DNA from: Actinomycetota bacterium
Lineage (GTDB): Bacteria; Actinomycetota; Actinomycetes; S36-B12
Direction: 5' to 3'
Length of the DNA stretch: 64,000 nt
Assembly (NCBI GenBank): GCA_005798555.1
Contig: SYJA01000024.1
Coordinates: 28,735-92,734 of the forward strand
Shown in pieces: positions 18,462 through 44,706 of the stretch; position 1 is the stretch's first letter, and each line of letters begins with the position of its first letter. The notes below the pieces were generated by a model, which was not told where the DNA came from, made no database searches, and saw nothing but the letters and a program-made list of their open reading frames with translations. Made by a program: the position numbers and the translations under genes.

Positions 18462-18516
18462 CTAACTCCTTGTCGATACTTAGCTCCACCGAGCAGAAAT
18501 CTAACCCATGCGGGTT

Positions 18517-18534
18517 ATTGAACGGTTATTCAGG
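18517..18534. promoter_or_regulatory. ATTGAACGGTTATTCAGG, second copy of the TGAACGG-N-TTCAGG operator motif in the divergent TetR/ACAD promoter region
   Basis: Lies in the 119-bp divergent intergenic region, nested inside a larger inverted repeat CTAACC…GGTTAG (18501-18538). Confidence 0.5.
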
Positions 18535-18580
18535 TTAGGCTGGCGACCATACTGCGACGAAGTCTAGGAGAGTCAAGAAG

Positions 18581-19765
18581 ATGGCTACGGCCCCAGACCC
18601 GAGTAACCCCATGCACCTTGCTGAGTTAAGTGCGCGCGCGGCGATATTCGTCGACGAGGTGCTGATTCCGCACGAAGTTACGGCTGAGCTGGCTGGCGGC
18701 CCGTTGCCCGCAGCAACGCAGCGTCAAATAGCGCAGCGGGCGCTCGAGCATGGTTTACATGGTGGGCTGCACTTGCAGGAGCATGGTGGCAATAGCTGGA
18801 CGACTACCGAGTGGTTTCTCGTGGAAGAGCAACTTGGTCACTCGACTAATGGGGTCTCTTGGTATATCCCGAATGCATACAACGTCTGGAAAGCCGGCAC
18901 GCCCGAGCAAATCGAACGCTGGCTTAAGCCGGCACTTCGAGGTGAACTGCACGACGCCTATGCGGTAACCGAGGCTGATGCTGGCAGTGACCCTTCGGGA
19001 ATTACCACAACCGCCATCAGGTCTGGTGCCGGCAGGTGGTTACTAAATGGCGAAAAGTGGTTCGTAACGTTTGGGTCCGTCGCCAAGGTCATAGTGGTGA
19101 TGGCGCTGGCAGATGATGGCGGTCAGTTGTTGCCTACCCTGTTCGCAGTTCCGGCCGACGCACCCGGTGTTGAGATGATTGCTGACGTTCCTTTCACCCA
19201 CAACTACCCCCATGGCCACCCCACCATGCGATTCACCGACGTTGAACTCACCGACGCCGACATCCTCGGCGGTCTCGGTAATGGTGAGAACCTGCAGCGG
19301 CTTTGGTTCACCGAGGAAAGACTCGGGATTGCCGCGCGCTGCATTGGTGCGATGCAGCGACTAATCGAGGAGTCAGTTGACTGGGCTGCAAACCGCGAAC
19401 AAGGCGGTGCCAGGCTCATCGATCATCAAGGGGTTAGCTTTCCGCTGGCCGACAGCGCAGCAGATGCGGCCGCCGGGCGCCTGCTCGGCTTGGAAGTAGC
19501 CCGGTTGGCTGATGCCGGTGCTGACCCCAAACTGGTGCACGGCAAAGCGTCACTGGCGAAACTCTTTTGCTCGGAAGCGGCCGGCCGGTGCGCCGACCGC
19601 GTGGTGCAGATCTTCGGCGGTCGCGGGTACATGCGCACCACGGCGGCCGAGAGATTCTGGCGCGAACTTAGAGTCGATCGAATCTGGGAGGGTACCTCTG
19701 AGATCCAGCGCCTCGTGGTCGCCCGCTCACTTGAGCGTCGTGGCGTTAAGTCAATGCTCACCTGA
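18581..19765 (+). CDS. Acyl-CoA dehydrogenase family flavoprotein
   Basis: 394 aa. ACAD fold blocks (AYAVTEADAGSDPSG…, …FGGRGYMR…IWEGTSEIQRLVVAR). Confidence 0.9.
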   Translation: MATAPDPSNPMHLAELSARAAIFVDEVLIPHEVTAELAGGPLPAATQRQIAQRALEHGLHGGLHLQEHGGNSWTTTEWFLVEEQLGHSTNGVSWYIPNAYNVWKAGTPEQIERWLKPALRGELHDAYAVTEADAGSDPSGITTTAIRSGAGRWLLNGEKWFVTFGSVAKVIVVMALADDGGQLLPTLFAVPADAPGVEMIADVPFTHNYPHGHPTMRFTDVELTDADILGGLGNGENLQRLWFTEERLGIAARCIGAMQRLIEESVDWAANREQGGARLIDHQGVSFPLADSAADAAAGRLLGLEVARLADAGADPKLVHGKASLAKLFCSEAAGRCADRVVQIFGGRGYMRTTAAERFWRELRVDRIWEGTSEIQRLVVARSLERRGVKSMLT

Positions 19766-19782
19766 TCGGATCTACCTCCAAT

Positions 19783-21801
19783 ATGGATATCTCACGGCTC
19801 ATTAACCCGTGCTCTATTGCCGTGGTTGGAGCGACCGATCGCCCCGGATCCTATGCGCACACCACCTTGCTTAACCTGATTCGAAATGGATATGCAGGAA
19901 CCGTTGTCGGTGTGCACCCAACTCGGCAAGAGGTACTCGGTTTTCGCTGCATACCTAGCCTTGCGGACCTAAGTGCGCCGGCAGCCGCGGTCGTGATCGC
20001 GACCCCGGCCGAATCGGTGCCGGGGTACCTCTTGCAGGCGCGCGAGCTGGGCTGCGGCGGCGCTGTGGTTTTTGCCGCCGGCTTCGCCGAAATCGGCAAT
20101 GACCTAGCCCAAGCAGATCTGATCTCGGCGGCCGGTGGCCTGCCGGTCATCGGTCCCAACGGCAACGGCCTGATATCCGTGCCAGCCAGAGCAGCGATGT
20201 GGGGGGATGCCGCCCAGCTACCAACCGAGGCAGGACCAATTGCCCTGATAACGCAGAGCGGCAATATCGGTGTCGTCCTGCTCGCCCATCGGCAAGGTCT
20301 CGGCCTGCACTCGATCTTCTCCGTTGGTAACTCCGCGGTGGTGGACACCGCGATGTTGATCGAGTCACTTGCCACCACCGATGGTGTCCGGGTCATCGGT
20401 GCCTACCTTGAAAGTGATGGCGAGGGGGCCAGGCTCGCCCGGGCACTTGCCAAGTGCGTACAAAACGATATTCGAGTGGTATTTCTAAAGGCCGGACGCA
20501 GCGAGCGCGGATTAATGGCCGGGGCGGCACACACGGCAGCGGTTGCCGGTGATCAAAGAGTTTTCGAGGCACTTATTGAAGAGGCCGGCGCAGTTCTTGT
20601 TCGAGAGCCGGTTGAACTGATCGAGACGGCACGCGCCCTAGCGATTGGTCGACGTGATGCACGCGGCGCGGCGGTTGTCACCTGCTCAGGCGGCGACGCC
20701 ACCCTCGCGGCGGACCTCGCCGATGACGCCGGGGCGATACTTGCCGACTTTGGCGCCCCGACGCTGGCGGCACTTGCCACCCTACTGCCCGAAACCGCGA
20801 CCGCGACCAATCCCCTCGACCACACTAATTTGGTCTGGGCCGACACCGAGGCCGTCACCGCAATCTGTGAAACTGTGGCCCTTGACCCGGGGGTTGGCCA
20901 TCTGATCTATGTGCAGGACCTACCGCCTGGGCTGCCCGCCGGCCCACGTGCCGAATGGGATGCCACCCGGGCCGGCGGGATTGCCGGCGGCGTGCGGGCA
21001 CAGCTTTCGACGATGCTGGCCAGTTCGATGCCCGGGCAGGAGCCGGATGATGCGGTCGGTGGGCTGGTCTCGGCGATGAAAGCGGTAGCCGCCCTCCAAC
21101 TGCCCGCACCAGATCCTGCGCGGCTACTGCGAATTTCCGAGTGCGCCAACCGGGCACCGGCCAAGGTGGGCAATCAGTACCTCGCCGAGCACTCGGCAAA
21201 GGAGCTACTCAGCGCCGCCGGGATCGCAGTTCCGAAAGCCAAAGTTGTTAGGGGTTCTGCGGCAGCAGCAGCGGCCGCCGTCGAAATTGGTTTCCCGGTT
21301 GCCGTGAAGCTGAGCGCACCCGGGCTCCTCCACAAAAGCGACATCGGCGCTCTGGCCCTTGGCTTGACCGACCCGGCGGCCGTTCACCAGGCGAGCGAAA
21401 AGATGCTGCAAATTGCGGCCCTCCCCGACGATCCCGAATTGTTAGTTGAGGCCATGGTCGACCCCGGTATCGAAATCTTCGTTGCCGCCCATCGCCTCGG
21501 CATCGTGCCCTGTGTTGTCGTTGGGCTAGGTGGGCTCTGGGCCGAGATTATGAATGACGTCGCGGTTATCCCGTTACCCACCGATAGCAATCGGATAGTT
21601 CGCGAAATTGGCCGACTTCGTGGTGCCGTACTGCTCACCGGCGGTCGCGGTCAACAGGGCCCTGCAATCCACGACTTGGCCCAACTCGTGGTCAAAACCG
21701 GAAATCTATTAATGGATGAGCACTGGGCGATGATCGAACTCAATCCCGTCATAGTTACTAACTCAACCGCAATAGCGGTCGATGCCGTTTTTTGCACCTA
21801 G
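19783..21801 (+). CDS. ADP-forming acyl-CoA synthetase (fused CoA-binding, ligase-CoA and ATP-grasp domains; acetate--CoA ligase family)
   Basis: N-terminal CoA-binding block SIAVVGATDRPGSY. Succinyl-CoA-synthetase-like middle domain. C-terminal ATP-grasp (…FPVAVKLSAPGLLHKSDIGALALGL…). 672 aa. Confidence 0.85.
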   Translation: MDISRLINPCSIAVVGATDRPGSYAHTTLLNLIRNGYAGTVVGVHPTRQEVLGFRCIPSLADLSAPAAAVVIATPAESVPGYLLQARELGCGGAVVFAAGFAEIGNDLAQADLISAAGGLPVIGPNGNGLISVPARAAMWGDAAQLPTEAGPIALITQSGNIGVVLLAHRQGLGLHSIFSVGNSAVVDTAMLIESLATTDGVRVIGAYLESDGEGARLARALAKCVQNDIRVVFLKAGRSERGLMAGAAHTAAVAGDQRVFEALIEEAGAVLVREPVELIETARALAIGRRDARGAAVVTCSGGDATLAADLADDAGAILADFGAPTLAALATLLPETATATNPLDHTNLVWADTEAVTAICETVALDPGVGHLIYVQDLPPGLPAGPRAEWDATRAGGIAGGVRAQLSTMLASSMPGQEPDDAVGGLVSAMKAVAALQLPAPDPARLLRISECANRAPAKVGNQYLAEHSAKELLSAAGIAVPKAKVVRGSAAAAAAAVEIGFPVAVKLSAPGLLHKSDIGALALGLTDPAAVHQASEKMLQIAALPDDPELLVEAMVDPGIEIFVAAHRLGIVPCVVVGLGGLWAEIMNDVAVIPLPTDSNRIVREIGRLRGAVLLTGGRGQQGPAIHDLAQLVVKTGNLLMDEHWAMIELNPVIVTNSTAIAVDAVFCT

Positions 21802-23083
21802 TAACCCGGCCCGCCAACTGGACGGTAATTCCCACATTGCCTATGCTTTCAGGGTGAACAATCCAAAAACGTCTGCTCCATTAGACCCGGCTGCCTTAGC
21901 TCAGTCACTAGCGCCATTTGGCGAAAGCCGAATGCTCCCGCCGGAGGCCTACACCTCCCCGGAGGTTTTCGCCTGGGAGAGCGCCAACTTTTTTTCCGGC
22001 TGGCACTGCATTGGACGCAGTGCAGACATTGCCGCCGCTGGCATGCAACGAGCTGACAAAGTAGGTGATACCACCGTGCTGCTTGTTCGCGGCGAGGATC
22101 TGGTCCTGCGTGCGTTTGCCAATGTCTGCCGCCACCGCGGCCACGAGATTCTTCCGTGCGGTGGGTCCACTACGGCTCGGGCAATAACTTGCCCGTACCA
22201 CTCATGGTCCTATCGGCTGGACGGGGATCTTTTCAGCGCAGCCGGCTACCAAGGTGAGTCGAATTTCGATGTTTCCGAATTTCCGCTCAGGGCACTTTGC
22301 GTGCAGGAGTGGCACGGGTGGATCTTCCTCGATCCATCAGGGTCCGCCGGCCCCCTAGGGATGCACCTTGCGGGATTAGAGGAGCGCATCGGCCAATATC
22401 AACCCGAACGACTAGTTGTGATGGCCTCCCACGAGTACGTAATCGAGGCCAACTGGAAGATCATCAATGAGAACTATCAGGAGTGCTACCACTGCACTTC
22501 TATTCATCCCGAACTCTGCCAGGTCAGCCCACCCGAAAGCGGTGAGAATTGGGCTTCGACCCTTGGTTCGTGGGTTGGGGGATGGCAAGACCTCCGTGAT
22601 CACGCTATGACGATGTCACTCGACGGTCACAGCGATGGAGTCCCGATACCGAACCTGTCACCGAGCGAACTTCGGCGCATTGACTACATCGGAGTTTTCC
22701 CGAACCTGCTGGTCAGCCTGCACCCGGATTACCTAATGACGCACCGCGCAATTCCTCTCTCGCCCAATCGCACTTGGGTCGAATGCTCCTGGGCTTTCCC
22801 CCCGGAGGCAATTGCTTCACCAACATTTGATCCCGCCTACGCGGTTGACTTCTGGGATATCACCAACCGCGAGGACTGGACCGCCTGCGAATCCGTCCAG
22901 CGCGGGCTGGAGTCTGGGTTTGCCAAAGCCGGGCCGCTATCACCCGCCGAGGACGCCATCTATCAATTTGTCACGATGGTTGCCCGCGGCTACCTCGGAC
23001 AACCGCTATCGCCCCTGAGTACCTCGGCACCCATTAACGCGGCCAATTCAGACGCTGCGCAAAGTCGGAAAGTGGAACATTGA
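21782..23083 (+). CDS. Rieske [2Fe-2S] non-heme-iron oxygenase, alpha-subunit type
   Basis: Rieske motif CRHRGHEI…CPYHSWSY. Catalytic-domain block NENYQECYHCTSIHPELC. ATG 21782 overlaps the upstream gene by 20 nt, and GTG 21854 is an alternative start. Confidence 0.85.
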   Translation: MPFFAPSNPARQLDGNSHIAYAFRVNNPKTSAPLDPAALAQSLAPFGESRMLPPEAYTSPEVFAWESANFFSGWHCIGRSADIAAAGMQRADKVGDTTVLLVRGEDLVLRAFANVCRHRGHEILPCGGSTTARAITCPYHSWSYRLDGDLFSAAGYQGESNFDVSEFPLRALCVQEWHGWIFLDPSGSAGPLGMHLAGLEERIGQYQPERLVVMASHEYVIEANWKIINENYQECYHCTSIHPELCQVSPPESGENWASTLGSWVGGWQDLRDHAMTMSLDGHSDGVPIPNLSPSELRRIDYIGVFPNLLVSLHPDYLMTHRAIPLSPNRTWVECSWAFPPEAIASPTFDPAYAVDFWDITNREDWTACESVQRGLESGFAKAGPLSPAEDAIYQFVTMVARGYLGQPLSPLSTSAPINAANSDAAQSRKVEH

Positions 23084-23424
23084 TAACTGCCCCGTTCATC
23101 CAAGCAGCGAATGAAGTCGCAGACCTTGAGGACTGGGGGCCGCTAGCCGAAGCCACCGGTGCCCCAATGCAAACCTCCGGGCACACGATGTGGTCTGATG
23201 AAAATAACTGTGAAGCCGGGATCTGGGAGTGCACCGCAGGCCCGTCCTACTGGAGTTTGGAACAAAACGAATTTGTGCACATTTTGTCCGGCAGCATGAC
23301 GGTGACCCCTGATGAAGGCGAAAGGTTCTTCGCAGGTCCCGGCTTCACCTTCTTGGTACCCGTCGGCTGGAAGGGCACCTGGGAGATCCACGAGACCATC
23401 CGAAAGTTGTATGTCCTGTTCTAA
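23080..23424 (+). CDS. Small cupin protein (DUF861/EutQ-like)
   Basis: 114 aa. The TTG start overlaps the Rieske stop (cATTGA). Cupin strand pattern …EFVHILSGSMTVTPDEGE…GFTFLVPVGWKGTWEI. Confidence 0.65.
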   Translation: MITAPFIQAANEVADLEDWGPLAEATGAPMQTSGHTMWSDENNCEAGIWECTAGPSYWSLEQNEFVHILSGSMTVTPDEGERFFAGPGFTFLVPVGWKGTWEIHETIRKLYVLF

Positions 23425-23460
23425 TTATCTGATAGCAGTTGTCAGCCTGCCGCACAGTTC

Positions 23461-23478
23461 AGACCCTTGGCAGGGTCT
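23461..23478. terminator. Short stem-loop AGACCCT-TGGC-AGGGTCT between convergent operons
   Basis: 7-bp perfect stem with a 4-nt loop, located in the 64-bp convergent gap 23425-23488. Confidence 0.35.
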
Positions 23479-23488
23479 AAGCGGTCGG

Positions 23489-25075
23489 TTAGCGCAGATC
23501 CGTAAGCACCTGTTGACTGGCTAACCGGCCCGGTGCGCCGATCACGCAGCCACCCGGGTGGGTGCCGGAACCACACTGGTAGTAACCGCGAATTGGCGTG
23601 CGGTAGTCGCTGTAGCCGGGTGCCGGCCGGAAGAAGTACATCTGATGCGGGAAAAACTCGCCCGCGTAGATATTGCCCTCCGACAGGCCCGTCTTGGCTT
23701 CGATAATGTCGGGAGAGACGATTTCGCGCTGCAACACCAGATCGTTGAAGTTGGGGAAGAAACTTTGGATTGTTGCCTGTACCCGATCGGCCATGCTCTC
23801 CCGCTCCGCCTGCCAAGTGCTGCCCTTGAGCTCATAGGGGGTGTACATCACGTAGCAAGACATCACATGCTTGCCGGGAGGTGCCATATCAGGATCTATT
23901 AGAGATTGAATGCACGCATCCATGTATGGGCGTTCGGAGTACCAGCCATACTTCGCTGCGTCGTAGGCACGCTCCATGTATTCGACGGTCGGCGCCATGT
24001 TGATGAACCCGTGATACTGATCAGTGCGGCCACTGAGCGTGGGGTACTCCGGCAGTCCATCCAGGGCGAAGTTCACTTTTGATGAGACTCCTTGGAAGCG
24101 GAATCGCTTTATAGTTTCCACCAGATCAGCGGGTAGCTCGCGCGGATCGGCGATCTCCAGGAAGGTGCGCCGCGGATCCAGGGAACTCACAACGATCGGT
24201 GCCCGAAATTCAGTGCCGTCGCGCAGGGCAACGCCCTTCACCTCGCCCTTATCGGTAATGAGTTGATCAACGTGCGAGTCCAGCCTAATCTCCGCTCCGT
24301 ACGCCGTAGCTGCTCGGGCCAGCACCTGCGTGAAGCCGCCATTGCCGCCCTTGTGGAAGGACCAGGATCCGCCGAGACCGTCGTGCTCGCCCATTGACAG
24401 ATACAGCCAGTTCATGCCGCTGCCCGGTGACATTGGGCCCAATTTGATTCCCACACAAGCCGCCGAGCAGATCGTGGCCTTGATGATGTCGGACTCAAGG
24501 TAGTCATCGCAGAAGTCCGCGATGCTTCCGGTCAACAGGCGCACCGCGTCGTGGATGACTTTCTTGTCACCGGTGCCTAGATGCTTGAGCAGCCACGCCA
24601 TCCTTTCGACGTCGGCCGGATCATCGCTGAACAGGTTAGGCGGAATCGAGTCAAACAGAGGCCGGATGAACTGGCGCACGCGTGCGGTGTCATGCTCAAA
24701 GCGCTCCATGCCATCAACATCGGCTTTTGAGTGTCGCGCTATTTCCCGGCGATTCAGTCCGGAATCAGGTCCAAGCAAGAAATAATCGCCGTTTTCCATC
24801 GGGGCTAAATGTGAGCGCATCAACAGGGGCATGAATCCATAACGCACTAGATCGAGTTCCTGAATAATCTCGGGGCGCAATAGGCTGAGGGCATAGGAGA
24901 AAGTCGTGAACGAGAAGCCAGGCCGCAGTTCCTCGGTGATCGCGGCACCACCCACTAAGTGTCGCTGTTCAAGGACCAAAACCTTTTTGCCGGCCTTGGC
25001 AAGGTAGGCCGCATTGGTCAGGCCATTGTGGCCGCCGCCGATGACGATAGCGTCATAGTTAAAGGTGTCCGACAT
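23489..25075 (-). CDS. NAD(P)/FAD-dependent oxidoreductase of the phytoene-desaturase (CrtI-like) family
   Basis: N-terminal YDAIVIGGGHNGL…VLVLEQRHLVGGA dinucleotide fold. C-terminal …YYQCGSGTHPGGCVIGAPG. Start set at ATG 25075 (MSDTFNYD), 1 nt after the stop of the upstream GcvT-like gene. Confidence 0.8.
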   Translation of the reverse strand: MSDTFNYDAIVIGGGHNGLTNAAYLAKAGKKVLVLEQRHLVGGAAITEELRPGFSFTTFSYALSLLRPEIIQELDLVRYGFMPLLMRSHLAPMENGDYFLLGPDSGLNRREIARHSKADVDGMERFEHDTARVRQFIRPLFDSIPPNLFSDDPADVERMAWLLKHLGTGDKKVIHDAVRLLTGSIADFCDDYLESDIIKATICSAACVGIKLGPMSPGSGMNWLYLSMGEHDGLGGSWSFHKGGNGGFTQVLARAATAYGAEIRLDSHVDQLITDKGEVKGVALRDGTEFRAPIVVSSLDPRRTFLEIADPRELPADLVETIKRFRFQGVSSKVNFALDGLPEYPTLSGRTDQYHGFINMAPTVEYMERAYDAAKYGWYSERPYMDACIQSLIDPDMAPPGKHVMSCYVMYTPYELKGSTWQAERESMADRVQATIQSFFPNFNDLVLQREIVSPDIIEAKTGLSEGNIYAGEFFPHQMYFFRPAPGYSDYRTPIRGYYQCGSGTHPGGCVIGAPGRLASQQVLTDLR

Positions 25076-25076
25076 G

Positions 25077-26276
25077 TCAGGCGGTCTTCCTCTCGGGGTT
25101 GTAAAAAGGCATGGTGGTGACGGTGGCACGTACGTTTATGTACTCGTGGTTCACGGTTTGCTCAAGGTAGATGTCGGTGCCCGGTTCGGCGTACTTTGGC
25201 TTGACGCGAGCAATGCCGATATGGCGCTGGAGCACAGGTGAATACATGAAACTGGTGGCATAGCCAATACGTTGGTCGTCAGCGCTGTAGAGCATGGACT
25301 CCCACGCCACGGGTAGTTCATCGGGGACCGCAAGGTGGCCACGTGAATCGAAGAGCTCGTAGAAGTCACTCCAGGCCACGGTGATGCCGACCGTGCGCCA
25401 TCGGGAGGAGCCATCGACCCGTTCACGCAATATCGCCTCGCGGCCAATGAACGGTCGACTGTCATCCTCAATGCCTTTGAGGAGCCAGCCGAGGCCTAAC
25501 TCATCGGGTGTGAAGCGATCCTCTGCGGTCCAGGCGTAACGACTGGAGTTGAATTCCACGCCAATGAGCGGCAAGCCCGCCTCAATGCGGGTCATACCAA
25601 GTGCTTCATCGCCGTATGGGCGAATTCCATGCGGCTGCCCGGCCTCAAGAATGGCATCAAGGACTCGCAGTGCATCAGCGGCGGGAATCATCACCTCATA
25701 GCCGAGATCACCACTGAACCCGGTGCGGCTAATTATCACCGGGGTGTTGGCAATTTTCGTTTCAGTAAATCCGAAGTAACGAAGGCCCAAGATATCTGCA
25801 GTTAGAAGTTCGAGGATGTCACGCGACCGTGGCCCTTGGAGTGCCAGTGACGCGTAATCCTCAGTCGCATCGACGATCTCGACGTCGTACAGGCTACTTA
25901 AATTGCTCAAGAAGCCGAAGTTGGGCTCCGCAGCCGTGAGCATGAATTCATCGGCCGAGAAACGAAATAGCACGCCGTCTTCCATGACGAACCCTGCATC
26001 ATCGCACCAGATCGTGTACTGAGCGCGCCCAGGTTTTAGGGTGCGGACATCGCGCGCAAAAACAAAGGAGCACAAAAGCTCAGCATCGCGTCCACGAATC
26101 CAGTATTTGTGAAGCGGCGACGTGTCGAAGAAGCCAGCAGCATTGCGAACGCCAAAGTACTCATGCTTACTCGATAGGTCATATCGAATGGCCGACAGGT
26201 AGCCGGACCAATTGCCCCACATCTGGCATTGGCTCAACTCCGCCAAGCGCGGGTGGAAGGGTGTCGTGCGGATCAT
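25077..26276 (-). CDS. Aminomethyltransferase (GcvT/DmdA-like, folate-binding) family protein
   Basis: 399 aa. GcvT-family blocks (…HEYFGVRNAAGFFDTSPLHKYWIRGRDA…, …ISRTGFSGDLGYEV…). Confidence 0.85.
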   Translation of the reverse strand: MIRTTPFHPRLAELSQCQMWGNWSGYLSAIRYDLSSKHEYFGVRNAAGFFDTSPLHKYWIRGRDAELLCSFVFARDVRTLKPGRAQYTIWCDDAGFVMEDGVLFRFSADEFMLTAAEPNFGFLSNLSSLYDVEIVDATEDYASLALQGPRSRDILELLTADILGLRYFGFTETKIANTPVIISRTGFSGDLGYEVMIPAADALRVLDAILEAGQPHGIRPYGDEALGMTRIEAGLPLIGVEFNSSRYAWTAEDRFTPDELGLGWLLKGIEDDSRPFIGREAILRERVDGSSRWRTVGITVAWSDFYELFDSRGHLAVPDELPVAWESMLYSADDQRIGYATSFMYSPVLQRHIGIARVKPKYAEPGTDIYLEQTVNHEYINVRATVTTMPFYNPERKTA

Positions 26277-26352
26277 CGCTCTCCTTTACTTAGCCGATGG
26301 CTCACCCTAGGGGCTTATTGGACATTTGCGCAATAGCCTCTATCGTATCCGC

Positions 26353-26988
26353 ATGGCCCGGATGACCCCTGATGACCGGCGTGAGGCAATCATCGCCGCC
26401 ACCTTGGCGGTTATGCAGCGCCAGGGCATTGCCGCAACCACTGTCCGCGATGTGGCGGCGGAACTTGGCGCCTCCAGCGGCCTAATCCACCACTACATGG
26501 CCTCGATGGACGAGCTCATCGCCGAAGCCTTCGGGCGGGCGGCCGGTGCTGACCTGCTGGCGACCCGTGCCTTAGTCGAGCAAGGCCAAGATCCACTGGA
26601 ACAATTACGCTTCTTCTTCGACTCCTATACCCGCGCTGACGGGGATTCTGGGATGCAGCTGTGGCTCGATGCGTGGGCCGAAGCCGCTCGACGCCCCGAG
26701 CTTAGGCAAATCTCGCAACTACTAAACCAAGAATGGCAACAACTCATCTGCGGCATCATTGATGGGGGTGTGCGCGCCGGCGTAATGAACTGCGCCGATC
26801 CAGCGGCCGCTGCCTGGCGCATCCTGTCGCTACTGGATGGGCTTCACTTACAGGAGGTGGCGCATGGTGACAGCGTCACCGGGCACCAAGTTACCAAATG
26901 GTCACGCCACGGTGCCGAGATTGAACTTGGCTTGGACCCCGGCACCCTGACTAACTCCTCACAAGGCAATCGTCTAGCGCGGGCCTAG
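26353..26988 (+). CDS. TetR-family regulator (BetI-like context)
   Basis: HTH IIAATLAVMQRQGIAATTVRDVAAELGASSGLIHHY. Divergent from the GcvT-like operon. Start set at ATG 26353 (MARMTPDD). Confidence 0.85.
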   Translation: MARMTPDDRREAIIAATLAVMQRQGIAATTVRDVAAELGASSGLIHHYMASMDELIAEAFGRAAGADLLATRALVEQGQDPLEQLRFFFDSYTRADGDSGMQLWLDAWAEAARRPELRQISQLLNQEWQQLICGIIDGGVRAGVMNCADPAAAAWRILSLLDGLHLQEVAHGDSVTGHQVTKWSRHGAEIELGLDPGTLTNSSQGNRLARA

Positions 26989-26996: not shown

Positions 26997-27902
26997 CTAG
27001 GTATTCGATGCCGCATAGATACTGGCGATTGCAGCATCAAGAGCCGAGTTGAACTCCGCATCGGTCTGCTGCGCCGACAGACCTTCGGTCAGAGCCCGCG
27101 AGAAACTAGCGGTCATACCGTGATTGCGAGCCAAGCGCGCATTAGCATCAGCACGCGAGTAGCCGCCAGAAAGTGCAACCACGCGGAGAACCCGTGGGTG
27201 CTCGATTAAGTCAAGGTAGAAGTCGTCCCGCTCCGGCAACGTGAGCTTTAGCATGATGTGCTGATCTGCACTTAAGTGATCAAGTGCGGCCATAATTGCT
27301 GGCTTCAATAGGGCTTCCGCGGCCGCCTTCTGCGCACTATTGATGTCCACCTCGGGCTCAATGATCGGGACCAGACCAGCGCCAAGAATCTGGCGGCCAA
27401 CCTCGAACTGCTGGCCCACGACCGCATCGACACCGGTCGGATTTGCTAACTTGATAACCGAACGCATCTTGGTGCCAAATATGCCGTGGGAGTTCGCCCG
27501 CGCCAACAAGTCAGCCAGGTCGGGCATTGGCTTCATCAGCTGAGCGCCATCGACCTCATCTGCCAGACCCTTATCGACTTTCAGGAAAGGCACGATGTGC
27601 TTTTGATTCCACAGATACTCCGCGGTGCCAATGCCATCAATCTGACGATCCATCGTCATCTCAAATAAAATTGCACCGAGGATGCGATCACCGGTGAAAG
27701 CCGGGCTAGTGATGATCCGAGCGCGCATCTGATGAATCAGGTCGAACATCTCGCCTTCACCCGAATATGCGCTCTCTGCAACGCCGTAGAGCATCAAGGC
27801 CTTTGCGGTACTGCCGCCGCTTTGATCGAGTGCCGCGATGAAGCCATCGGCGTTCTTCATCTTGTCGAACTGTTCGATGTTCGCGCTGCCCATGCTGTTC
27901 AC
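26997..27902 (-). CDS. Class I fructose-bisphosphate aldolase
   Basis: 301 aa. [16 protein letters not shown] and PFLKVDKG (Schiff-base Lys region) blocks are typical of bacterial class I FBA. Confidence 0.8.
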
Positions 27903-28063
27903 GATGCATCCCCTCGTCGCAGGTGGTCACCCTCAATTTAGTGCCGGGCCCCTATTCCATTCTGGTGCATGGACTTTTGTGATGCATCGGCCGGTGGCCG
28001 GTGACCGCCTTGCCATTTAGGCGCTTTTCACTTAACCTTCGACCCGATCCTAGGGGAGATTTC

Positions 28064-29083
28064 ATGTGCACGAATTTCAAGGTACCAACCGCCGAGGACG
28101 GCTCGGTCGTAGTGGGCCGCAGCCTCGATTTCCCGCATTTCATGAGTTTTTCCCTATGTGCCACCCCGCGTGATCTCCCCCGGGTGGCCCTCGGCCCGGC
28201 CGGGGTCCCCACCAAGACATGGACCACGCGTCACGGAGTAGTCGGACTTGCGGTGACTGGCATGGATGCCGCGATCATGGACGGCATGAACACCGCCGGC
28301 CTATCCGCCCACCTGCTTTACATGGTCGGTGGCTTTTTCTATGCGCCGGCGGCCCGCGGCGACGGCACCGATGTCAGCCAACTCGAACTGGCCTCCTACC
28401 TGCTATCGACTTGTGCGACCATCGACGAGGTGCGCAAGGCGGTGGCCGAAATCAACATCTGGGGCTGGGATGCCGGCCTGCCTTTCACCCCGCCTGTCCA
28501 CGTGCTCGTGCACGACCGGGATGACTCTGCGGCCATCGAGTTTCGGCCCGACGGGGTCGTGGTTGTCGACAACCCAACTAGTGTCGGAACCAACTCCCCT
28601 TACCTCGAGTGGCACCTGCTGAACTTGAATCACCACACCGGCTTCTCGGCCGAAAACCGCCCGGGGCAACGCGTTCGCACGGGTGACGGTTTGAACATCA
28701 GGAGTCTGGGAGTTGGGTCCGGGCTCCACGGCCTGCCGGGCGACTACACCGGTGCCTCCCGCTTCGTGCGTGCTATCGCCCTTACTACCTTGGCCGAGAC
28801 GCCAACGGACGGCCGCGACGCGGAAATGCTAACCCTGCACGTGCTCAACACCTTCGACGTGCCGCCGGGCATTATCAAAGAGCCTGGGCCTGACCACTCA
28901 ATCGTAAACGAGCTCACCTACGCCGACACGATCGCCAATCTGACTGATCTGCGCTACGCCTATCGCGCCCTCGATGACCCGGAGGTGTATGTGGTAGATC
29001 TAAAAGAGACGGACTTCACCGGTGACAAATCAAGGTTTCGCGCACTCGCGGAACGCGGTGAGTTCACGACCATCAGCCTTTAA
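28064..29083 (+). CDS. Linear amide C-N hydrolase (choloylglycine hydrolase / penicillin V acylase Ntn family)
   Basis: Start set at ATG 28064, preceded by AGGGGAG. The resulting N-terminus MCTNFKV gives the Cys2 Ntn nucleophile. About 340 aa with no signal peptide. Confidence 0.85.
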   Translation: MCTNFKVPTAEDGSVVVGRSLDFPHFMSFSLCATPRDLPRVALGPAGVPTKTWTTRHGVVGLAVTGMDAAIMDGMNTAGLSAHLLYMVGGFFYAPAARGDGTDVSQLELASYLLSTCATIDEVRKAVAEINIWGWDAGLPFTPPVHVLVHDRDDSAAIEFRPDGVVVVDNPTSVGTNSPYLEWHLLNLNHHTGFSAENRPGQRVRTGDGLNIRSLGVGSGLHGLPGDYTGASRFVRAIALTTLAETPTDGRDAEMLTLHVLNTFDVPPGIIKEPGPDHSIVNELTYADTIANLTDLRYAYRALDDPEVYVVDLKETDFTGDKSRFRALAERGEFTTISL

Positions 29084-29089: not shown

Positions 29090-30484
29090 GTGCGAGTGCC
29101 CTCCCCGCTTAGTCGAAGAAGTTTTCTAGGTGCCACCACATTAGTTGCAACCGGGATCGCTACCGGCAACAAATCCGCAATCGCAAGTCTATCCCGGGCA
29201 AGGCTGCCGGACCCGGCCGCATCACTGGTCACGAGGTGGGACACCGATCGATGGTCACGGGGGGCTTACTCGGCGCTGCCCGTTGGTGCAACCGCAGGCA
29301 TTAGGCAGACTCTCGCGCGCGCCATCATTGGCAACCGACTCGTCTTTGCCGGTGAGTACACCGACCCCGAATACCCCGCAACAGTTCAGGGGGCTCTTCG
29401 ATCAGGCCAGCGCGCCGCGCGCGCTTTAATAGCCAACGGTTTCGGGCCCAAGGTCGTAGTTATCGGCGCCGGGATGGCCGGGGTGTCAGCAGCCCACGAT
29501 CTCGCCATCAGTGGCGCCCAGGTGGTGGTGGTTGAGGCCAGGGATCGAATCGGTGGGCGAGTCCAGACGAATACGTCCTGGGGATTGCCCGTCGAAATGG
29601 GTGCCGCTTGGGTGCACGCATTGAAAGCCAACCCGCTAGTGCCCCTTGCGCAGCAAGCCCGGCTTAAATTGATTCCTAGTGACTACGAGAATGAAAGTTT
29701 CCGTGACACCAAGACCGGTCGACCATCACCAAGTGCTAGGCGTGCTTCGATTCTACTGGGTCGCCTCCTGAGCCAACTCGAGAATTCATGGCCGAACCCC
29801 AGCACTTCAGTTGCCTCTTGGTTGCAGCAGCATGGACTGCCAGCCAATCGGTTTTCAACTTGGGCCGTTGAGACCGGCATCGTGCAGGAGTACGGCCTCA
29901 ATGCATCGAGATTGGGTGCCCGGGCCCCCACCGAAGGCGGTGATTACCTAGGTGGTGACGCATTTGTGGCCGGGGGCTACCAGCACATACCTCAATTGCT
30001 GGCCGCCGACCTCGAAATCCAACTTAATTCGCCAGTTGTGAATGTCGACGTATCCCAGGCCAGAAATGCATATGTCACGGTCGAATCCGGCGAAGTATTA
30101 ACCGCAGATGCGGTGGTGGTTGCCGTGCCGGTTACGCTGTTGCAAGCCCAAGCCCCAGGCATCGCTGGCTTGCCGGCAGACATCCAGAGTGCCCTTGGCA
30201 AAATTGCCACCGGAGACCTCGAAAAAGTGATCCTGCGCTATGACGAACAGTGGTGGGGCGCGGAGCGGGTGCTCGGGATAGTCGGCGGCGGGGTGCCTGG
30301 GCAATCAATTCAAACGACGCTGAATTCGGCACTACGCTGGACGGAGTTCTTCGACGTAACTGATGTCGTCGGTGCCCCGGCACTAGTCGGTTTCTCCGGT
30401 GGCAGCGCAGCGCGCACTCGTCCGAAATCGGACTCCGCGTGCGTAGCCGAAGCCATGGCGATGCTGCAGGCAGCGTTTCACTAG
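29090..30484 (+). CDS. Tat-signal flavin-containing amine oxidase with apparently circularly permuted domain order
   Basis: Twin-arginine signal LSRRSFLGATTLVATG. Next comes a block normally found at the C-terminus of amine oxidases (LVTRWDTDRWSRGAYS…RLVFAGEYT…VQGALRSGQRAA). The normal N-terminus follows (VVVIGAGMAGVSAAHDL…VVVVEARDRIGGRV … GAAWVH). The ORF ends at …AMAMLQAAFH*. Confidence 0.8.
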   Translation: MRVPSPLSRRSFLGATTLVATGIATGNKSAIASLSRARLPDPAASLVTRWDTDRWSRGAYSALPVGATAGIRQTLARAIIGNRLVFAGEYTDPEYPATVQGALRSGQRAARALIANGFGPKVVVIGAGMAGVSAAHDLAISGAQVVVVEARDRIGGRVQTNTSWGLPVEMGAAWVHALKANPLVPLAQQARLKLIPSDYENESFRDTKTGRPSPSARRASILLGRLLSQLENSWPNPSTSVASWLQQHGLPANRFSTWAVETGIVQEYGLNASRLGARAPTEGGDYLGGDAFVAGGYQHIPQLLAADLEIQLNSPVVNVDVSQARNAYVTVESGEVLTADAVVVAVPVTLLQAQAPGIAGLPADIQSALGKIATGDLEKVILRYDEQWWGAERVLGIVGGGVPGQSIQTTLNSALRWTEFFDVTDVVGAPALVGFSGGSAARTRPKSDSACVAEAMAMLQAAFH

Positions 30485-30501: not shown

Positions 30502-32022
30502 CTACTTCATGTCCGCAACTCTGATCAGGCCCTTAAGAACTCCGACATAACCAACACCATCTGGCGCTAGGTACAACGAGGCGTAGGAGTTGTTGAACCC
30601 GCTACCCGTACCCGCTAGCTTGCTGTAAACCACCTCACCGGTGCGGTAATCCAGTGCCGTCCAGTACCATCGATCAATCTTGCCTGGCCCTTTCGGCTTG
30701 GTGTAGGTGTAGATCAAGCCGGTCGCGGCCGAGAACTTGGGAACCACGCTAGGAGCACTTACCTCAGAATTTGTCCAGACCTTCTTGCAGGTGCCATCAG
30801 CCTGCACATCAACCCTCGCAAAGCCAGGGGTTGTGGTCTTACCCCCGGTGACAGATTTGACGCTCAAGTTCCCGTAATTGTTCTCGACAATTAGCGAACT
30901 ACCGATTGAGATAAGTGAATTCTCGGTAATGCTCGCATTCTTGTCGAAAACGGGCGCTGAGCAGACTTCACGAGCTGCGGCATTAACTGCCGTGTTATAC
31001 ACGACTACGTTCATTGGATTGGCGTTGTCTGTAATTGCTACCCGACCACCGGACATCACCGTCGGACTGGTGCCGGAACCTGCACTCTTTGCACCAGGCT
31101 TTTGCACGCCATCATTTTCATATACGATGCGCCAACTTGATGTTGGCAAGCCAGCAACCGCATCGAAGCGATACATCGCAATGTTACTAACGATGTAGAC
31201 GCCCCCAGTCTCATCCATCGAGAACGACTGCGTAATTCCCTCACCTGAAAGTCTTATGGTCTGGCTCTTTCCGGTTTGCGGGTTCAGGGCACCGACCAGT
31301 CCCTGGGTTGTGACGAACCAGATATTGCCATTGAAGTCTGGCAATGCAGACAAAATCGAATCTCCACTGGCCGCGAAGGTAGGTTGACCTGCAGTGATCG
31401 ATGTCGCAAGATCGATATCGCTAACTGGCTTAAATGAATACTTCGAGCCAGTACGTGCCAATTCGAAGGTGATGATGTGCCGGTCGGCCGTCGCCACGAC
31501 GGCCCGGTCCTGATTGTCGAGATAGAAGTAACCCCCCGACAATTCGGTGTAGTCCCGATTCGACAAAGCGCCACCCGGGGTGGGGCGATTGGTTAGGTTG
31601 TATCGAGTTAAGACCTTCAACGAATCTGGATCCATGAGAGTCAAGTAGGCAGGAGTCTGCGGAGTCAAGCAAATTGCAACTAGCTGGCCTGCTGCATTGA
31701 AAGTGATACTTGCGCACTCACCACCTGCAACCTGTGAAGTGACCTTGGTGTTCTTACCCAACGGTCCGGCCCACTGATACGAGTCCGACATGTAGGTGTC
31801 GTTATGGATATTCGACTTACCCACCGGTGCCAGGTACGGGTTAGTCGGGACCACCGGCATCGAGACCTGGTTTGCCTTCGCCGCGCTGCCAATGAACTTG
31901 GTGGCGCTGCTATACCCGGGGCCGTCAGGAATTGGCTTGGCGTATGCCCAGCCACCTGAGGTTGCGGCGAGCACCGCAGCAACTAGGACGACAGCAACTC
32001 TGGCACGAACAACTCTTTTCAT
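30502..32022 (-). CDS. Secreted protein of unknown function (repetitive beta-rich, possibly propeller-like)
   Basis: 506 aa. Clear Sec signal (MKRVVRARVAVVLVAAVLAATSGGWAYA/KP). Gly/Ser/Thr/Asn-rich beta-strand-like periodicity. No motif I can name. Confidence 0.5.
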   Translation of the reverse strand: MKRVVRARVAVVLVAAVLAATSGGWAYAKPIPDGPGYSSATKFIGSAAKANQVSMPVVPTNPYLAPVGKSNIHNDTYMSDSYQWAGPLGKNTKVTSQVAGGECASITFNAAGQLVAICLTPQTPAYLTLMDPDSLKVLTRYNLTNRPTPGGALSNRDYTELSGGYFYLDNQDRAVVATADRHIITFELARTGSKYSFKPVSDIDLATSITAGQPTFAASGDSILSALPDFNGNIWFVTTQGLVGALNPQTGKSQTIRLSGEGITQSFSMDETGGVYIVSNIAMYRFDAVAGLPTSSWRIVYENDGVQKPGAKSAGSGTSPTVMSGGRVAITDNANPMNVVVYNTAVNAAAREVCSAPVFDKNASITENSLISIGSSLIVENNYGNLSVKSVTGGKTTTPGFARVDVQADGTCKKVWTNSEVSAPSVVPKFSAATGLIYTYTKPKGPGKIDRWYWTALDYRTGEVVYSKLAGTGSGFNNSYASLYLAPDGVGYVGVLKGLIRVADMK

Positions 32023-44703: not shown

Positions 44704-44706
44704 CGG

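Follow-up and report, generated by a model that had tools for sequence, protein, structure and literature searches.

A locus in which a GcvT-like protein is encoded directly ahead of an FAD flavoprotein raises the question of what the two products may do together. The window, that is, the whole stretch of DNA analysed (64,000 nt), carries both genes on the minus strand: a GcvT-like (aminomethyltransferase-family) gene (25077..26276; 399 aa, ATG start), proposed to encode a tetrahydrofolate (THF)-binding C1-acceptor subunit, and a PYROXD2-like FAD flavoprotein gene (23489..25075; 528 aa), proposed to encode the amine-oxidising catalytic subunit. The original prediction had suggested a two-component demethylase, and this reading is supported by the results below, from which we infer that the pair acts as a demethylase, uses THF and forms a complex. 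Judged from sequence, we consider it fairly probable that the pair is a two-component, folate-linked oxidative N-demethylase, and its conservation points to an undescribed N-methyl-amine demethylase.

The junction between the two genes was as predicted: on the minus strand, the TGA stop of the GcvT-like gene (25079-25077) is followed by one base and then by the flavoprotein ATG (25075-25073), a TGA-c-ATG arrangement (25073..25079) whose 1-nt spacer is consistent with translational coupling. A putative Shine-Dalgarno-like GAGGAAG for the flavoprotein gene (25086..25092, minus strand, 11-17 nt 5' of the ATG) was read within the 3' end of the GcvT-like gene, which has a Shine-Dalgarno sequence of its own, AAGGAG, 4 nt 5' of its ATG (26281..26286, minus strand). 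The GTG at 25129 is not the flavoprotein start, because independent gene calls in sister contigs pick the same ATG at 25075 and the alignments of homologues begin at residue 1-6. The flavoprotein and the folate domain are not one polypeptide in the window, where two ORFs are separated by TGAc, and no natural fusion of GcvT and flavoprotein was found among the 150 best family representatives.

Lack of conservation of the pair as neighbours elsewhere had been set beforehand as the refuting test, and the reading withstood it. A GcvT orthologue was found to adjoin the flavoprotein gene in 101 of 163 non-redundant related loci, including all those of the window's subclade (n = 22/22). Sorted by flavoprotein identity to the window protein, all loci at 60% or above (n = 16/16) and all those at 50-60% (n = 6/6) had this neighbour. 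At least ten bacterial phyla were represented, the pair being present in Chloroflexota, Actinomycetota, Acidobacteriota, Gemmatimonadota, Planctomycetota, Myxococcota, Gamma- and Alphaproteobacteria, Bacteroidota, Bdellovibrionota and Dormibacterota. The GcvT gene occurs in three arrangements, co-directional upstream, divergent upstream (divergent orientation in 34 loci) or downstream of a second flavoprotein paralogue; most relatives have two tandem flavoprotein paralogues in the module, and the single-flavoprotein form of the window is a reduced variant of it. Of the 42 co-directional pairs, 36 had stop-start distances between -13 and +13 nt; five related loci show the TGAnATG junction and 17 show an ATGA overlap. 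The flanking genes otherwise vary from locus to locus. The reverse test gave the same picture, the flavoprotein gene lying immediately downstream of all GcvT homologues looked up (n = 5/5). In a third collection, of plasmids, the seven best GcvT matches fell in the same seven records as the seven best flavoprotein matches. Two of these records, those of Shinella zoogloeoides and Parasedimentitalea marina, were inspected, and each has the genes in a single operon. Identities to the window proteins were correlated between each flavoprotein and its GcvT partner (Pearson r = 0.93, n = 101), a sign of co-inheritance. Since the same pairing and junction type recurs in about 100 independent loci, the pair is not a chance juxtaposition; chance adjacency was refuted by the 101 conserved loci across at least ten phyla.

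The association has a clear limit. In a neighbour-joining tree, a simple distance method without bootstrap support, the window flavoprotein falls in a GcvT-linked clade I (127 leaves) and not with the eukaryotic PYROXD2 proteins, which fall in a sister clade II (48 leaves), and none of the loci of the PYROXD2-proper clade has a GcvT neighbour (n = 0/40). The GcvT link thus ends at the clade boundary, and extrapolation to the whole PYROXD2 family is therefore weaker. Within clade I, two loci with full flanks (L037 and L062) had no GcvT gene within 8 kb, and in two others, also with full flanks (L036 and L075), it lies about 6.7 kb away. No paper describing the pair was found in the literature, nor were biochemical data for any member of the flavoprotein clade in the searchable literature.

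Folate and betaine functions recur in the surroundings of the pair, a context in keeping with the transfer of C1 units from methylated amines. The BetI-like TetR gene that had been predicted to be divergent from the pair lies at 26326..26988 on the plus strand (Pfam TetR_N, 6.8e-12; BetI-type TetR_C_6, 3.2e-18); its product scores below the BetI equivalog cut-offs and is the probable repressor of the pair. In 6 of the 22 loci of the window's subclade its orthologues (53-67% identity) adjoin the pair, most of them in divergent orientation, and the operons of Shinella and Parasedimentitalea likewise have a divergent TetR gene. Convergent with the pair is a plus-strand operon assigned by Pfam, with genes for an acyl-CoA dehydrogenase (18581-19765), an ADP-forming acyl-CoA ligase (19783-21801), a Rieske non-haem-iron oxygenase of the betaine-demethylase type (21782..23083; Rieske, Ring_hydroxyl_A) and, last, a small Cupin_3 protein (23080..23424; 6.1e-19). 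The best NCBIfam match of the Rieske protein was GbcA, below its cut-off, and its nearest solved structures were 4QUP ('monooxygenase; demethylase'), 3VCA and the carnitine monooxygenase CntA, 6Y8J (E 1e-38 to 1e-40); homologues of it were found near the flavoprotein in 38 of the 163 related loci, and the acyl-CoA dehydrogenase and ligase families recur near the pair in three (L007, L069 and L088). Pfam and NCBIfam also assigned an OYE + Pyr_redox_2 flavoenzyme gene (14319-16274, plus strand), a class-III aminotransferase gene (16275-17729, minus strand) and a second BetI-type TetR gene (17811-18461, minus strand). The flavA-flavB-GcvT operon of S. zoogloeoides is flanked by genes for an OYE-type NADH:flavin oxidoreductase and an aminotransferase, and that of P. 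marina by genes for an aminotransferase and a large FAD-dependent oxidoreductase. Thirteen loci carry the formyl-THF deformylase gene purU, bona fide by TIGR00655 (372 bits, cut-off 286), directly 3' of the flavoprotein genes. The recurrent neighbours encode Stc2/CntA/GbcA-like Rieske oxygenases, amino-acid permeases, class-III aminotransferases, aldehyde dehydrogenases and BetI-type TetR regulators.

Both domains of the GcvT/aminomethyltransferase superfamily (PF01571 and PF08669) were detected above gathering score in the GcvT-like protein (GCV_T, 1.9e-56, 191.6 bits, cut-off 25.6; GCV_T_C, 1.4e-12, 47.8 bits, cut-off 25.9), and the scores for the glycine-cleavage T-protein models fell short (TIGR00528, 138 bits vs 235.85; NF001567, 183 bits vs 300). 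Its best NCBIfam and PDB matches were to the C-terminal domain of the TMAO demethylase Tdm (220 bits; 9q5a, E 1e-45), its closest characterised relative; the Tdm model was covered only at positions 385-759 (220 bits vs a cut-off of 1100). Tdm is a fused metalloenzyme (DUF1989 + GcvT domain) without a flavoprotein, whereas the GcvT-like protein lacks the N-terminal DUF1989 metal domain. In the plasmid collection, Tdm domains ranked next among the GcvT matches, behind the true partner proteins. The match to SoxA was confined to the SoxA C-terminal domain (179 bits vs a cut-off of 1164). The catalytic Asp and the folate-site Glu of the E. coli protein (D97 and E195) correspond to D100 and E194, and their equivalents are invariant in the partner proteins (n = 96/96).

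We propose that the two genes would form a self-contained, co-translated module for oxidative N-methyl removal with delivery of the C1 unit to folate. The substrate would be a methylated amine, tertiary or secondary, with an N-methyl amino acid or omega-amino acid as the probable candidate. The PYROXD2-like FAD protein would oxidise its N-methyl C-H to an iminium or carbinolamine, with O2, or a quinone/ETF, as the presumed electron acceptor. The GcvT-like protein, in complex with the flavoprotein, would bind THF and take the C1 unit as 5,10-methylene-THF with no free formaldehyde let out, by analogy with the folate domain of dimethylglycine oxidase, SoxA of sarcosine oxidase and DmmD. In the probable order of steps, the Rieske oxygenase encoded nearby would first demethylate a quaternary (betaine-type) amine, the module would act next, and the class-III aminotransferase would finally remove the primary amine that results; the divergent TetR would probably keep the pair repressed until substrate is present.

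Dimethylglycine oxidase/dehydrogenase (DMGO/DMGDH) and sarcosine dehydrogenase combine a DAO-type flavoprotein and a GcvT-type folate domain in a single fused chain (e.g. PDB 1PJ5, 4PAA), and the window encodes such a fused DMGDH-like enzyme, as had been stated, at 41495-43885 (DAO + FAO_M + GCV_T + GCV_T_C). The pair resembles these enzymes in the flavin-dependent N-methyl oxidation proposed for it, in the GcvT-fold module that would transfer the C1 unit to THF and in a betaine and methylamine catabolism gene context. It differs from DMGDH/DMGO in that its modules are separate polypeptides with the folate module encoded first, in the two tandem flavoprotein paralogues of most of its relatives, and in that its flavoprotein is PYROXD2-like, of the amine-oxidase/CrtI superfamily, the DAO profile covering residues 8-44 only (the Rossmann turn). 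The suggestion of an unfused, re-partnered DMGDH analogue stands as regards the separate folate module and the non-DAO partner, but an unfused module is not new as such, its precedents being SoxA of heterotetrameric sarcosine oxidase and DmmD. In SoxABDG, and in the N-methylglutamate dehydrogenase MgdABCD, the flavoprotein and a GcvT-like folate-binding component are likewise separate and encoded in one operon, often with purU linked; however, SoxB is DAO-type and SoxA has extra NAD/FMN-binding parts, while the pair has no full-length SoxA and neither soxD nor soxG was found among its neighbours. LSD1/KDM1A, a flavoprotein with the amine-oxidase fold, demethylates N-methyl-lysine and reportedly binds THF as formaldehyde acceptor; unlike in the pair, the folate is bound by LSD1 itself with no GcvT partner, and the substrate is the histone tail. 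DmmD, of the dimethylamine monooxygenase DmmDABC, is thought to join released formaldehyde to H4F (PMC5520151). It is a stand-alone GcvT-domain protein encoded beside a demethylating enzyme, the role proposed for the pair's flavoprotein, but its partner is the DmmABC monooxygenase and not a PYROXD2-like flavoprotein.

A rather unlikely alternative is that the two proteins act in the same pathway with no complex, the GcvT-like protein working on its own as a THF-dependent methyltransferase like DmdA, LigM or DesA, which would transfer the methyl group of an S-, O- or N-methyl compound straight to THF and so give 5-methyl-THF, and the flavoprotein oxidising the demethylated product, or readying the substrate, in a separate step. 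Stand-alone demethylases do exist in the GcvT family, weak NCBIfam matches to DmdA (107 bits), DesA (72 bits) and LigM (68 bits) were obtained, operon linkage alone fits consecutive steps as well as subunits, and the genes of the 34 divergent loci are not co-translated. However, Tdm, GcvT (183 bits) and SoxA match far better than these three families, the catalytic Asp of aminomethyl type is invariant, the PurU neighbour suits oxidation of methylene-THF to formyl-THF and not 5-methyl-THF chemistry, and the extreme fidelity of the pairing, with predominant 4-nt overlaps, is typical of subunits.

It is also unlikely that the GcvT-like protein has lost its folate chemistry and serves as a structural, substrate-delivery or regulatory subunit of an enzyme that frees formaldehyde. 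THF-contact residues of E. coli GcvT are replaced in it (R223 by L226, Y101 by F104 and N113 by A116), and the loss of the R223 and N113 contacts counts against the proposed folate role. Leu occupies the R223 position in 90 of the 96 partner proteins, as in Tdm, which also shares the Y101-to-Phe change; the R223 and Y101 substitutions led the authors of the Tdm study to doubt THF binding there, and Tdm catalysis needs no THF, its GcvT domain being termed possibly vestigial (PMC12560246). Against this, formaldehyde release by Tdm itself drops when THF is added (PMC12560246), D97 and E195 are kept throughout, and PurU is genetically linked. Moreover, the fused DMGDH-like protein of the window has Ile at the R223 position, so the Arg may be dispensable outside true T-proteins.

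The identity of the flavoprotein bears on a third alternative. The motifs that had been pointed out, GGGHNGL (residues 13-19) and GTHPGGCVIGAPG near the C-terminus, are both present, and the protein is a member of the PYROXD2 family: residues 3-527 aligned with oyster PYROXD2 (XP_011443058 cluster; 367 bits, E 1e-104) with an identity of 39% by phmmer and 37% by BLASTP. PYROXD2 is the mitochondrial orphan flavoprotein of humans and animals, and this is a comparison between two uncharacterised proteins, with full-length homology and the GGGHNGL and HPGGG motifs in common, although the two fall in sister clades of the tree and no GcvT neighbour was seen for bacterial proteins of the PYROXD2 clade. 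The Pfam Amino_oxidase domain covers the flavoprotein end to end. The best Foldseek match of its AF2 model (pLDDT 79.6) was the gamma-carotenoid desaturase 4REP (E 2e-23, TM 0.74/0.80), followed by CrtI 4DGK (TM 0.55/0.69) and, about as close as CrtI, by flavin amine oxidases (TM about 0.55-0.62 / 0.65-0.70), among them NicA2, 6-hydroxynicotine oxidase, MAO and putrescine oxidase, so that the fold cannot separate CrtI from amine oxidases.

The designation 'CrtI-type' accordingly holds at the level of superfamily and fold only. It appears very improbable that the protein works as a carotenoid or isoprenoid desaturase or ketolase of CrtI/CrtO type and that its adjacency to GcvT is meaningless. 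CrtO was its best NCBIfam match, 4REP its best fold match, a similar C-terminal HPGG-type motif is shared with CrtI/CrtO/CrtD, and its relatives are publicly annotated as 'phytoene dehydrogenase-like'; but the carotenoid models were far under their cut-offs (CrtO ketolase NF045689, 280.5 bits vs 1000; crtI_fam TIGR02734, 86.5 bits vs 238.1), identity was 17%, and neither the annotated ORFs of the window nor the recurrent neighbours in related loci include a carotenoid (crt) gene. In addition, by a rough estimate a GcvT-family immediate neighbour is expected for a given gene at well under 1%, as against the 101 loci in which the adjacency is kept.

A glycine-cleavage-like (T-protein with H-protein) or YgfZ/Iba57-type Fe-S-maintenance role with the flavoprotein as redox partner, for which family membership and the historical name of PYROXD2, 'pyridine nucleotide-disulfide oxidoreductase domain', could be cited, is scarcely credible, given that neither gcvH nor gcvP was found among the window's annotated ORFs or the recurrent neighbours of related loci, that the GcvT equivalog scores fell short and no YgfZ model was among the matches, and that the sole Cys-x3-Cys of the flavoprotein (ICSAAC) is not kept in the consensus of close homologues.

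Hints of the chemistry also come from the family at large, for no member of which a catalytic activity has been described (PMC8777681). A missense variant of human PYROXD2 explains about 50% of the variance of plasma N6-methyllysine (PMC8109053), and as an mQTL the locus is very strong for N6-methyl-, N6,N6-dimethyl- and N6,N6,N6-trimethyllysine and equally for N-methylpipecolate and for TMA and DMA (PMC8109053, PMC8777681). Fusions of PYROXD2 with the formaldehyde-activating GFA domain were detected in at least 21 protist protein clusters; together with the N6-methyllysine variant, they hint at formaldehyde-forming N-demethylation in the family, and the pair offers a testable idea of function for the human orphan enzyme.

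The GcvT-like gene (26276 to 25077, 399 aa) and the FAD flavoprotein gene (25075 to 23489, 528 aa) both lie on the minus strand and begin with ATG. The TGA stop of the first (25079-25077) and the ATG of the second (25075-25073) are separated by one base, and the coordinates and TGA-c-ATG junction of the original prediction proved correct on reading the sequence. A Shine-Dalgarno motif was present for each gene on the same strand: AAGGAG (26281-26286), 4 nt ahead of the GcvT-like ATG, and GAGGAAG (25092-25086), within the 3' end of the GcvT-like gene. The starts were identical in the gene calls of five near-identical metagenome contigs, and contig k141_241848 of ENA assembly ERZ27257035 matched the window. 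Other features that had been proposed were also recovered, namely the GGGHNGL and C-terminal GTHPGGCVIGAPG motifs of the flavoprotein, the divergent plus-strand TetR gene (26326-26988, with a BetI-type C-terminal domain by Pfam) and, in the same window, the canonical DAO-FAO_M-GCV_T-GCV_T_C fusion (41495-43885). A promoter and terminator scan of 23300-26500 returned sites no more numerous than in shuffled sequence. The convergent flavoprotein and cupin genes are 64 nt apart, and a short hairpin within this gap (AGACCC-TTGGCA-GGGTCT, 23461-23478) is a possible bidirectional terminator; it was missed by the scan because it has no T-run. The GC content of the window was uniform (56-61%), with no foreign-island signature.

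The distribution of the pair was determined in two scans, each represented by its best 80 loci: one genome per GTDB species, with the family alignment as query (43-68% identity), and the JGI metagenomes, queried with an alignment headed by P0323, which is nearest to eukaryotic PYROXD2 among the bacterial representatives. The presence of GcvT was scored by tblastn with the window GcvT protein, and same-strain copies were removed. The pair was present in 101 loci in total. All the loci with flavoprotein identities of at least 60% (n = 16) or 50-60% (n = 6) were evaluable and had an adjoining, co-directional upstream GcvT gene. At 45-50% identity GcvT adjoined in 48 loci (14 co-directional, 34 divergent), with 10 evaluable loci lacking it and 10 not evaluable; at 40-45% the counts were 31 (13 co-directional, 10 divergent, 8 downstream), 15 and 9, respectively. 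Below 40% none of the 13 evaluable loci had an adjoining GcvT, and five were not evaluable. The pair was found in Chloroflexota, Actinomycetota, Acidobacteriota, Gemmatimonadota, Planctomycetota, Myxococcota, Gammaproteobacteria, Bacteroidota, Bdellovibrionota and Dormibacterota, as well as in Alphaproteobacteria from plasmid records.

A neighbour-joining tree of 252 sequences, which is distance-based and carries no bootstrap support, split the family into a GcvT-linked clade I that includes the window flavoprotein (127 leaves) and a sister clade II, PYROXD2 proper, that includes all the eukaryotic PYROXD2 sequences (48 leaves). Within clade I the pair was present in 22/22 loci of the window's subclade, 8/9 of a gammaproteobacterial subclade and 73/95 of a large subclade, where the loci without a visible GcvT were mostly on short contigs; in clade II it was present in 0/40. 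The pair is among the most constant features of clade I, and the adjacency on which the original prediction had staked itself proved to be conserved elsewhere. Orthology of the window flavoprotein with PYROXD2 was considered and dropped for a sister-clade relation, on the basis of the P0323-seeded scan and the tree. No widely conserved neighbour gene was detected in the clade II loci scanned; a Rieske gene was near a few of them, and in an NC10 bacterium an amino-acid permease and a methyltransferase were encoded divergently from the flavoprotein.

The identities of the flavoproteins and of their GcvT partners to the window proteins were correlated (r = 0.93, n = 101). In a reverse look-up, the flavoprotein lay immediately downstream of 5/5 GcvT homologues (60-65% identity), in surroundings otherwise unrelated. 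Among annotated plasmids, the seven best GcvT and the seven best flavoprotein matches shared the same seven records, and the next-best GcvT matches were Tdm domains (Tdm is the TMAO demethylase, composed of a DUF1989 and a GcvT domain). The stop-start spacing was -13 to +13 nt in 36 of the 42 co-directional pairs, with 17 ATGA overlaps and five TGAnATG junctions, as in the window. No natural GcvT-flavoprotein fusion was detected when the 150 best representatives at 50% identity were examined. In a rival reading, the GcvT-like product would be a methyltransferase working on its own and the flavoprotein an oxidase of a separate step; given the conserved adjacency and the tight spacing, we regard this reading as unlikely.

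The GcvT-like protein matched both GcvT Pfam domains. Its best matches were to the C-terminal folate-type domain of Tdm (NCBIfam, 220 bits; PDB 9Q5A, E 1e-45), followed in the NCBIfam and PDB searches by bacterial T-proteins and SoxA, with DmdA, DesA and LigM far weaker. Residues were compared with E. coli GcvT, using a sequence checked to be the same as that of PDB 3A8I. Both the catalytic Asp (D97) and E195 were kept in the window protein and in 96/96 partner proteins of related loci; the R223 position was Leu in the window protein and in 90/96 partners, and the window protein also had Phe for Y101 and Ala for N113. The Arg was absent as well from the window's fused DMGDH-like protein, and since members of the DMGDH family use THF, THF binding by the GcvT-like protein is considered likely. 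The same R223 and Y101 replacements occur in Tdm, where they were read as a sign of weakened THF binding, and the release of formaldehyde by Tdm nevertheless falls on THF addition (PMC12560246). A second rival, in which the GcvT-like protein is a folate-dead structural subunit, meets these replacements on one side and the kept D97 and E195 on the other, and is judged quite improbable.

The flavoprotein matched the Pfam Amino_oxidase profile end to end, plus several Rossmann-turn profiles, and failed all the carotenoid models (crtI_fam, 86.5 bits vs 238; CrtO, 280 vs 1000); its closest solved relative by sequence was CrtI, at only E 4e-14. When 1.84 billion representative proteins were scanned in full, 1,949 clusters were found at E < 1e-30. 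The full-length relatives listed were 32-44% identical, its own cluster aside, and several had a presequence of 40-70 residues. One of the latter, P0266, representative of the cluster containing oyster PYROXD2 (XP_011443058), aligned over residues 3-527 (E 1e-104; 39% identity by phmmer, 37% by BLASTP). The best fold match of the AlphaFold2 model (pLDDT 79.6, pTM 0.80) was the gamma-carotenoid desaturase 4REP (TM 0.74/0.80), followed by CrtI 4DGK (TM 0.55/0.69) and then by many flavin amine oxidases and dehydrogenases (TM 0.55-0.62 / 0.65-0.70), including NicA2, 6-hydroxynicotine oxidase, MAO, putrescine oxidase and pseudooxynicotine amine oxidase; CrtI and these enzymes were all 14-18% identical. 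The failed carotenoid cut-offs, the PYROXD2 homology and the fold matches together indicate a PYROXD2-like member of the amine-oxidase/CrtI superfamily; the CrtI-like partner first proposed is therefore retained at the superfamily level and withdrawn at the level of the CrtI family. A carotenoid enzyme adjacent to GcvT by chance, despite the desaturase fold match, was rejected on the conservation of the pair and the failed family cut-offs, and is very improbable. The GcvT-like protein, T-protein relatives notwithstanding, scored below the curated thresholds that define the genuine T-protein of glycine cleavage, and a role in glycine cleavage or Fe-S maintenance is scarcely credible.

In 87 loci (e.g. 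related loci L029:9600-11165, L064:5178-6746 and L181:10601-12157) the first flavoprotein was directly followed by a second, more divergent PYROXD2-like paralogue, with 26-40% identity to the window protein. The usual module therefore consists of GcvT and two tandem flavoproteins, flavA and flavB, arranged as GcvT<->flavA-flavB, GcvT-flavA-flavB or flavA-flavB-GcvT, the last with overlapping genes in Steroidobacteraceae, Shinella zoogloeoides and Parasedimentitalea marina. Having a single flavoprotein, the window's subclade represents a reduced two-gene version, which either lost the second flavoprotein or never had one. The neighbours, clustered from non-overlapping longest ORFs, varied by lineage, and the pair alone was constant. 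Recurrent among them were an amino-acid permease (20 loci), a Rieske oxygenase homologous to that of the window (38/163 loci), aldehyde dehydrogenase, ADP-forming CoA ligase, acyl-CoA dehydrogenase, class-III aminotransferase and BetI-type TetR genes; PurU, the formyl-THF deformylase (TIGR00655, 372 bits vs 286), directly followed flavB in 13 loci. The window Rieske protein (21782-23083) had GbcA as its closest NCBIfam match, and its nearest structures were 4QUP ('monooxygenase; demethylase'), 3VCA and the carnitine monooxygenase CntA, a group that acts on quaternary ammonium compounds. The operons of Shinella and Parasedimentitalea, with TetR, aminotransferase, Rieske or SRPBCC oxygenase and ABC transporter genes, plus an OYE-type NADH:flavin oxidoreductase (Shinella) or a large FAD-dependent oxidoreductase (Parasedimentitalea), closely resemble window 14319-26988. 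Cultured carriers of the operon include Shinella zoogloeoides ATCC 19623, Ensifer adhaerens and Parasedimentitalea marina W43. In a Nocardioides MAG (GCA_047602075.1; L006:6109-7632), an FMO-like flavin monooxygenase and an amino-acid-type ABC transporter are encoded just upstream of TetR-GcvT-flavoprotein, recalling the Tmm/Tdm logic of trimethylamine oxidation.

The two-component folate-linked demethylase originally predicted, corrected for the identity of the flavoprotein, is supported by these comparisons, and we consider it fairly probable that the pair is a folate-linked oxidative N-demethylase. The flavoprotein would act on a secondary or tertiary amine, oxidizing an N-methyl group to give an iminium and passing electrons to a presumed acceptor, and the GcvT-like subunit, presumably in complex with it, would hold THF and convert the C1 unit to 5,10-methylene-THF; in some lineages this unit would be oxidized further by PurU and other folate enzymes. 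In the window, the Rieske oxygenase would start the pathway by converting a quaternary to a tertiary amine, the pair would strip the next methyl groups, and an aminotransferase would turn the primary amine into a carbonyl compound, with CoA-dependent steps for the carbon skeleton. Where two paralogues occur, the flavoproteins may take successive methyl groups or heterodimerize.

The pair is outside all the comparable systems. Dimethylglycine oxidase/dehydrogenase and sarcosine dehydrogenase work similarly, but the window flavoprotein is not DAO-type and its modules are unfused; heterotetrameric sarcosine oxidase also works similarly, whereas the pair has no soxD or soxG genes. Tdm has a DUF1989 domain that the pair lacks, CrtI and CrtO exclude its flavoprotein by their curated thresholds, and PYROXD2 is homologous to the flavoprotein, which nonetheless falls in the sister clade. 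The proposed working is like that of DmmD/DmmABC, in which a stand-alone GcvT-domain protein is thought to join released formaldehyde to H4F (PMC5520151). The two proteins are currently annotated in general terms ('NAD(P)/FAD-dependent oxidoreductase', 'aminomethyltransferase family protein'), the RefSeq gene names are likewise generic, and a search of full texts available without subscription retrieved neither a description of the bacterial pair nor an enzymatic activity for PYROXD2. To our knowledge, folate-coupled oxidative demethylation occurs solely with DAO-type flavoproteins (DMGDH, SARDH, DMGO, SoxAB, MgdC-type) or non-flavin partners (Tdm, DmmABC). If the proposal is right, a second flavoprotein lineage was recruited to it; the module occurs widely in bacteria of soil and marine habitats, and its characterization would supply a missing step in methylated-amine and betaine turnover.

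A broader and more tentative reading, possible though not favored, is that the PYROXD2 family as a whole, with the human mitochondrial protein among its members, consists of formaldehyde-forming N-methyl-amine demethylases, since three independent lines agree: bacterial clade I, protist fusions and human genetics. In clade I the flavoprotein is genetically tied to a folate C1-acceptor, sometimes also to PurU. In genomes and transcriptomes of protists, an N-terminal GFA domain (PF04828, glutathione-dependent formaldehyde-activating enzyme) is recurrently fused to PYROXD2; within the top 120 matches, at least 21 different clusters at 90% identity have it (representatives P0267, P0448-P0457, P0460, P0462, P0464, P0465, P0467, P0471, P0479, P0483, P0485 and P0545; from Logan, JGI, EukProt, MMETSP and NCBI). 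The domain was confirmed by hmmscan in P0267 (3.6e-16) and P0449 (1.1e-13), and fell short of 1e-6 in P0483, the one from a named species, Perkinsus olseni. GFA was the sole recurrent fusion partner found for the flavoprotein family, and we know of no firmly established function for the GFA domain itself.

A human PYROXD2 missense variant explains ~50% of plasma N6-methyllysine variance, 48% of that of N6,N6-dimethyllysine and 21% of that of N-methylpipecolate (PMC8109053). The locus, also linked to trimethyllysine, TMA and DMA, is among the strongest known metabolite QTLs (PMC8109053, PMC8777681); PYROXD2 function is described as unknown, and biallelic variants have been described in a severe mitochondrial disorder of infancy (PMC8777681). 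The mQTL evidence is correlative, and clade II bacteria have no GcvT link (0/40). On the broad reading, one candidate activity for human PYROXD2 would be the long-orphaned epsilon-alkyllysinase / N6-methyl-lysine oxidase, for which the literature search returned historical mentions only. If the broad reading is true, formaldehyde would be handled lineage by lineage, by a GcvT-type folate subunit with or without PurU in bacterial clade I and by a fused glutathione-type GFA domain in alveolate protists. The window pair would then be a genomic clue to the control by PYROXD2 of about half of the variance in plasma N6-methyl- and N6,N6-dimethyllysine, and to its influence on N-methylpipecolate, TMA and DMA. 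The bacterial context and the protist GFA fusion offer a testable hypothesis of formaldehyde-releasing N-demethylation for human PYROXD2.

Taken as a whole, the window resembles a catabolic island for methylated amines, peptides and betaines. A linear amide hydrolase of the choloylglycine-hydrolase family (28001-29083, plus strand) is followed after 6 nt by a flavin amine oxidase (29090-30484; PF01593, 5e-62), and the two may form another coupled pair, in which an amine is freed from an amide and then oxidized. Between these genes and the TetR gene lies a class I fructose-bisphosphate aldolase (26997-27902, minus strand; NCBIfam equivalog passed, 482 bits vs 392), an odd site for a glycolytic enzyme. 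Besides the fused DAO-GcvT enzyme, a second catabolic block (37720-49601) encodes Opp/Dpp-type ABC transporter components, an alpha/beta hydrolase, an SBP_bac_5 binding protein, another GbcA-like Rieske oxygenase (46685-47743) and an S15 X-Pro dipeptidyl peptidase (47760-49601). The OYE + Pyr_redox_2 flavoenzyme at 14319-16274 (plus strand), similar to a gene flanking flavA-flavB-GcvT in Shinella, scored highest in NCBIfam against 'mycofactocin system FadH/OYE family oxidoreductase 2' (581 bits vs a cut-off of 793); among its PDB neighbours are 2,4-dienoyl-CoA reductase, histamine dehydrogenase and trimethylamine dehydrogenase. A Pterin_bind / DHPS-like fragment (33597-34130, minus strand; Pfam 3e-10) missed the DHPS equivalog and might have a part in C1 metabolism as a methyltransferase-type protein that binds pterin or folate; it was called at 292 aa on a sister contig, so its listed start is probably too short. 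Five long ORFs had no Pfam match at the thresholds used: 30502-32022 (minus, 506 aa), 49912-52395 (minus, 827 aa), 32651-33478 (plus, 275 aa), 668-1453 (plus, 261 aa) and 6491-6943 (plus, 150 aa); the first of these had no NCBIfam match either, and was called as a gene on sister contigs. A GH18 chitinase-like protein with a C-terminal CBM2 domain (10933-12711, plus strand) is unrelated to the pair.
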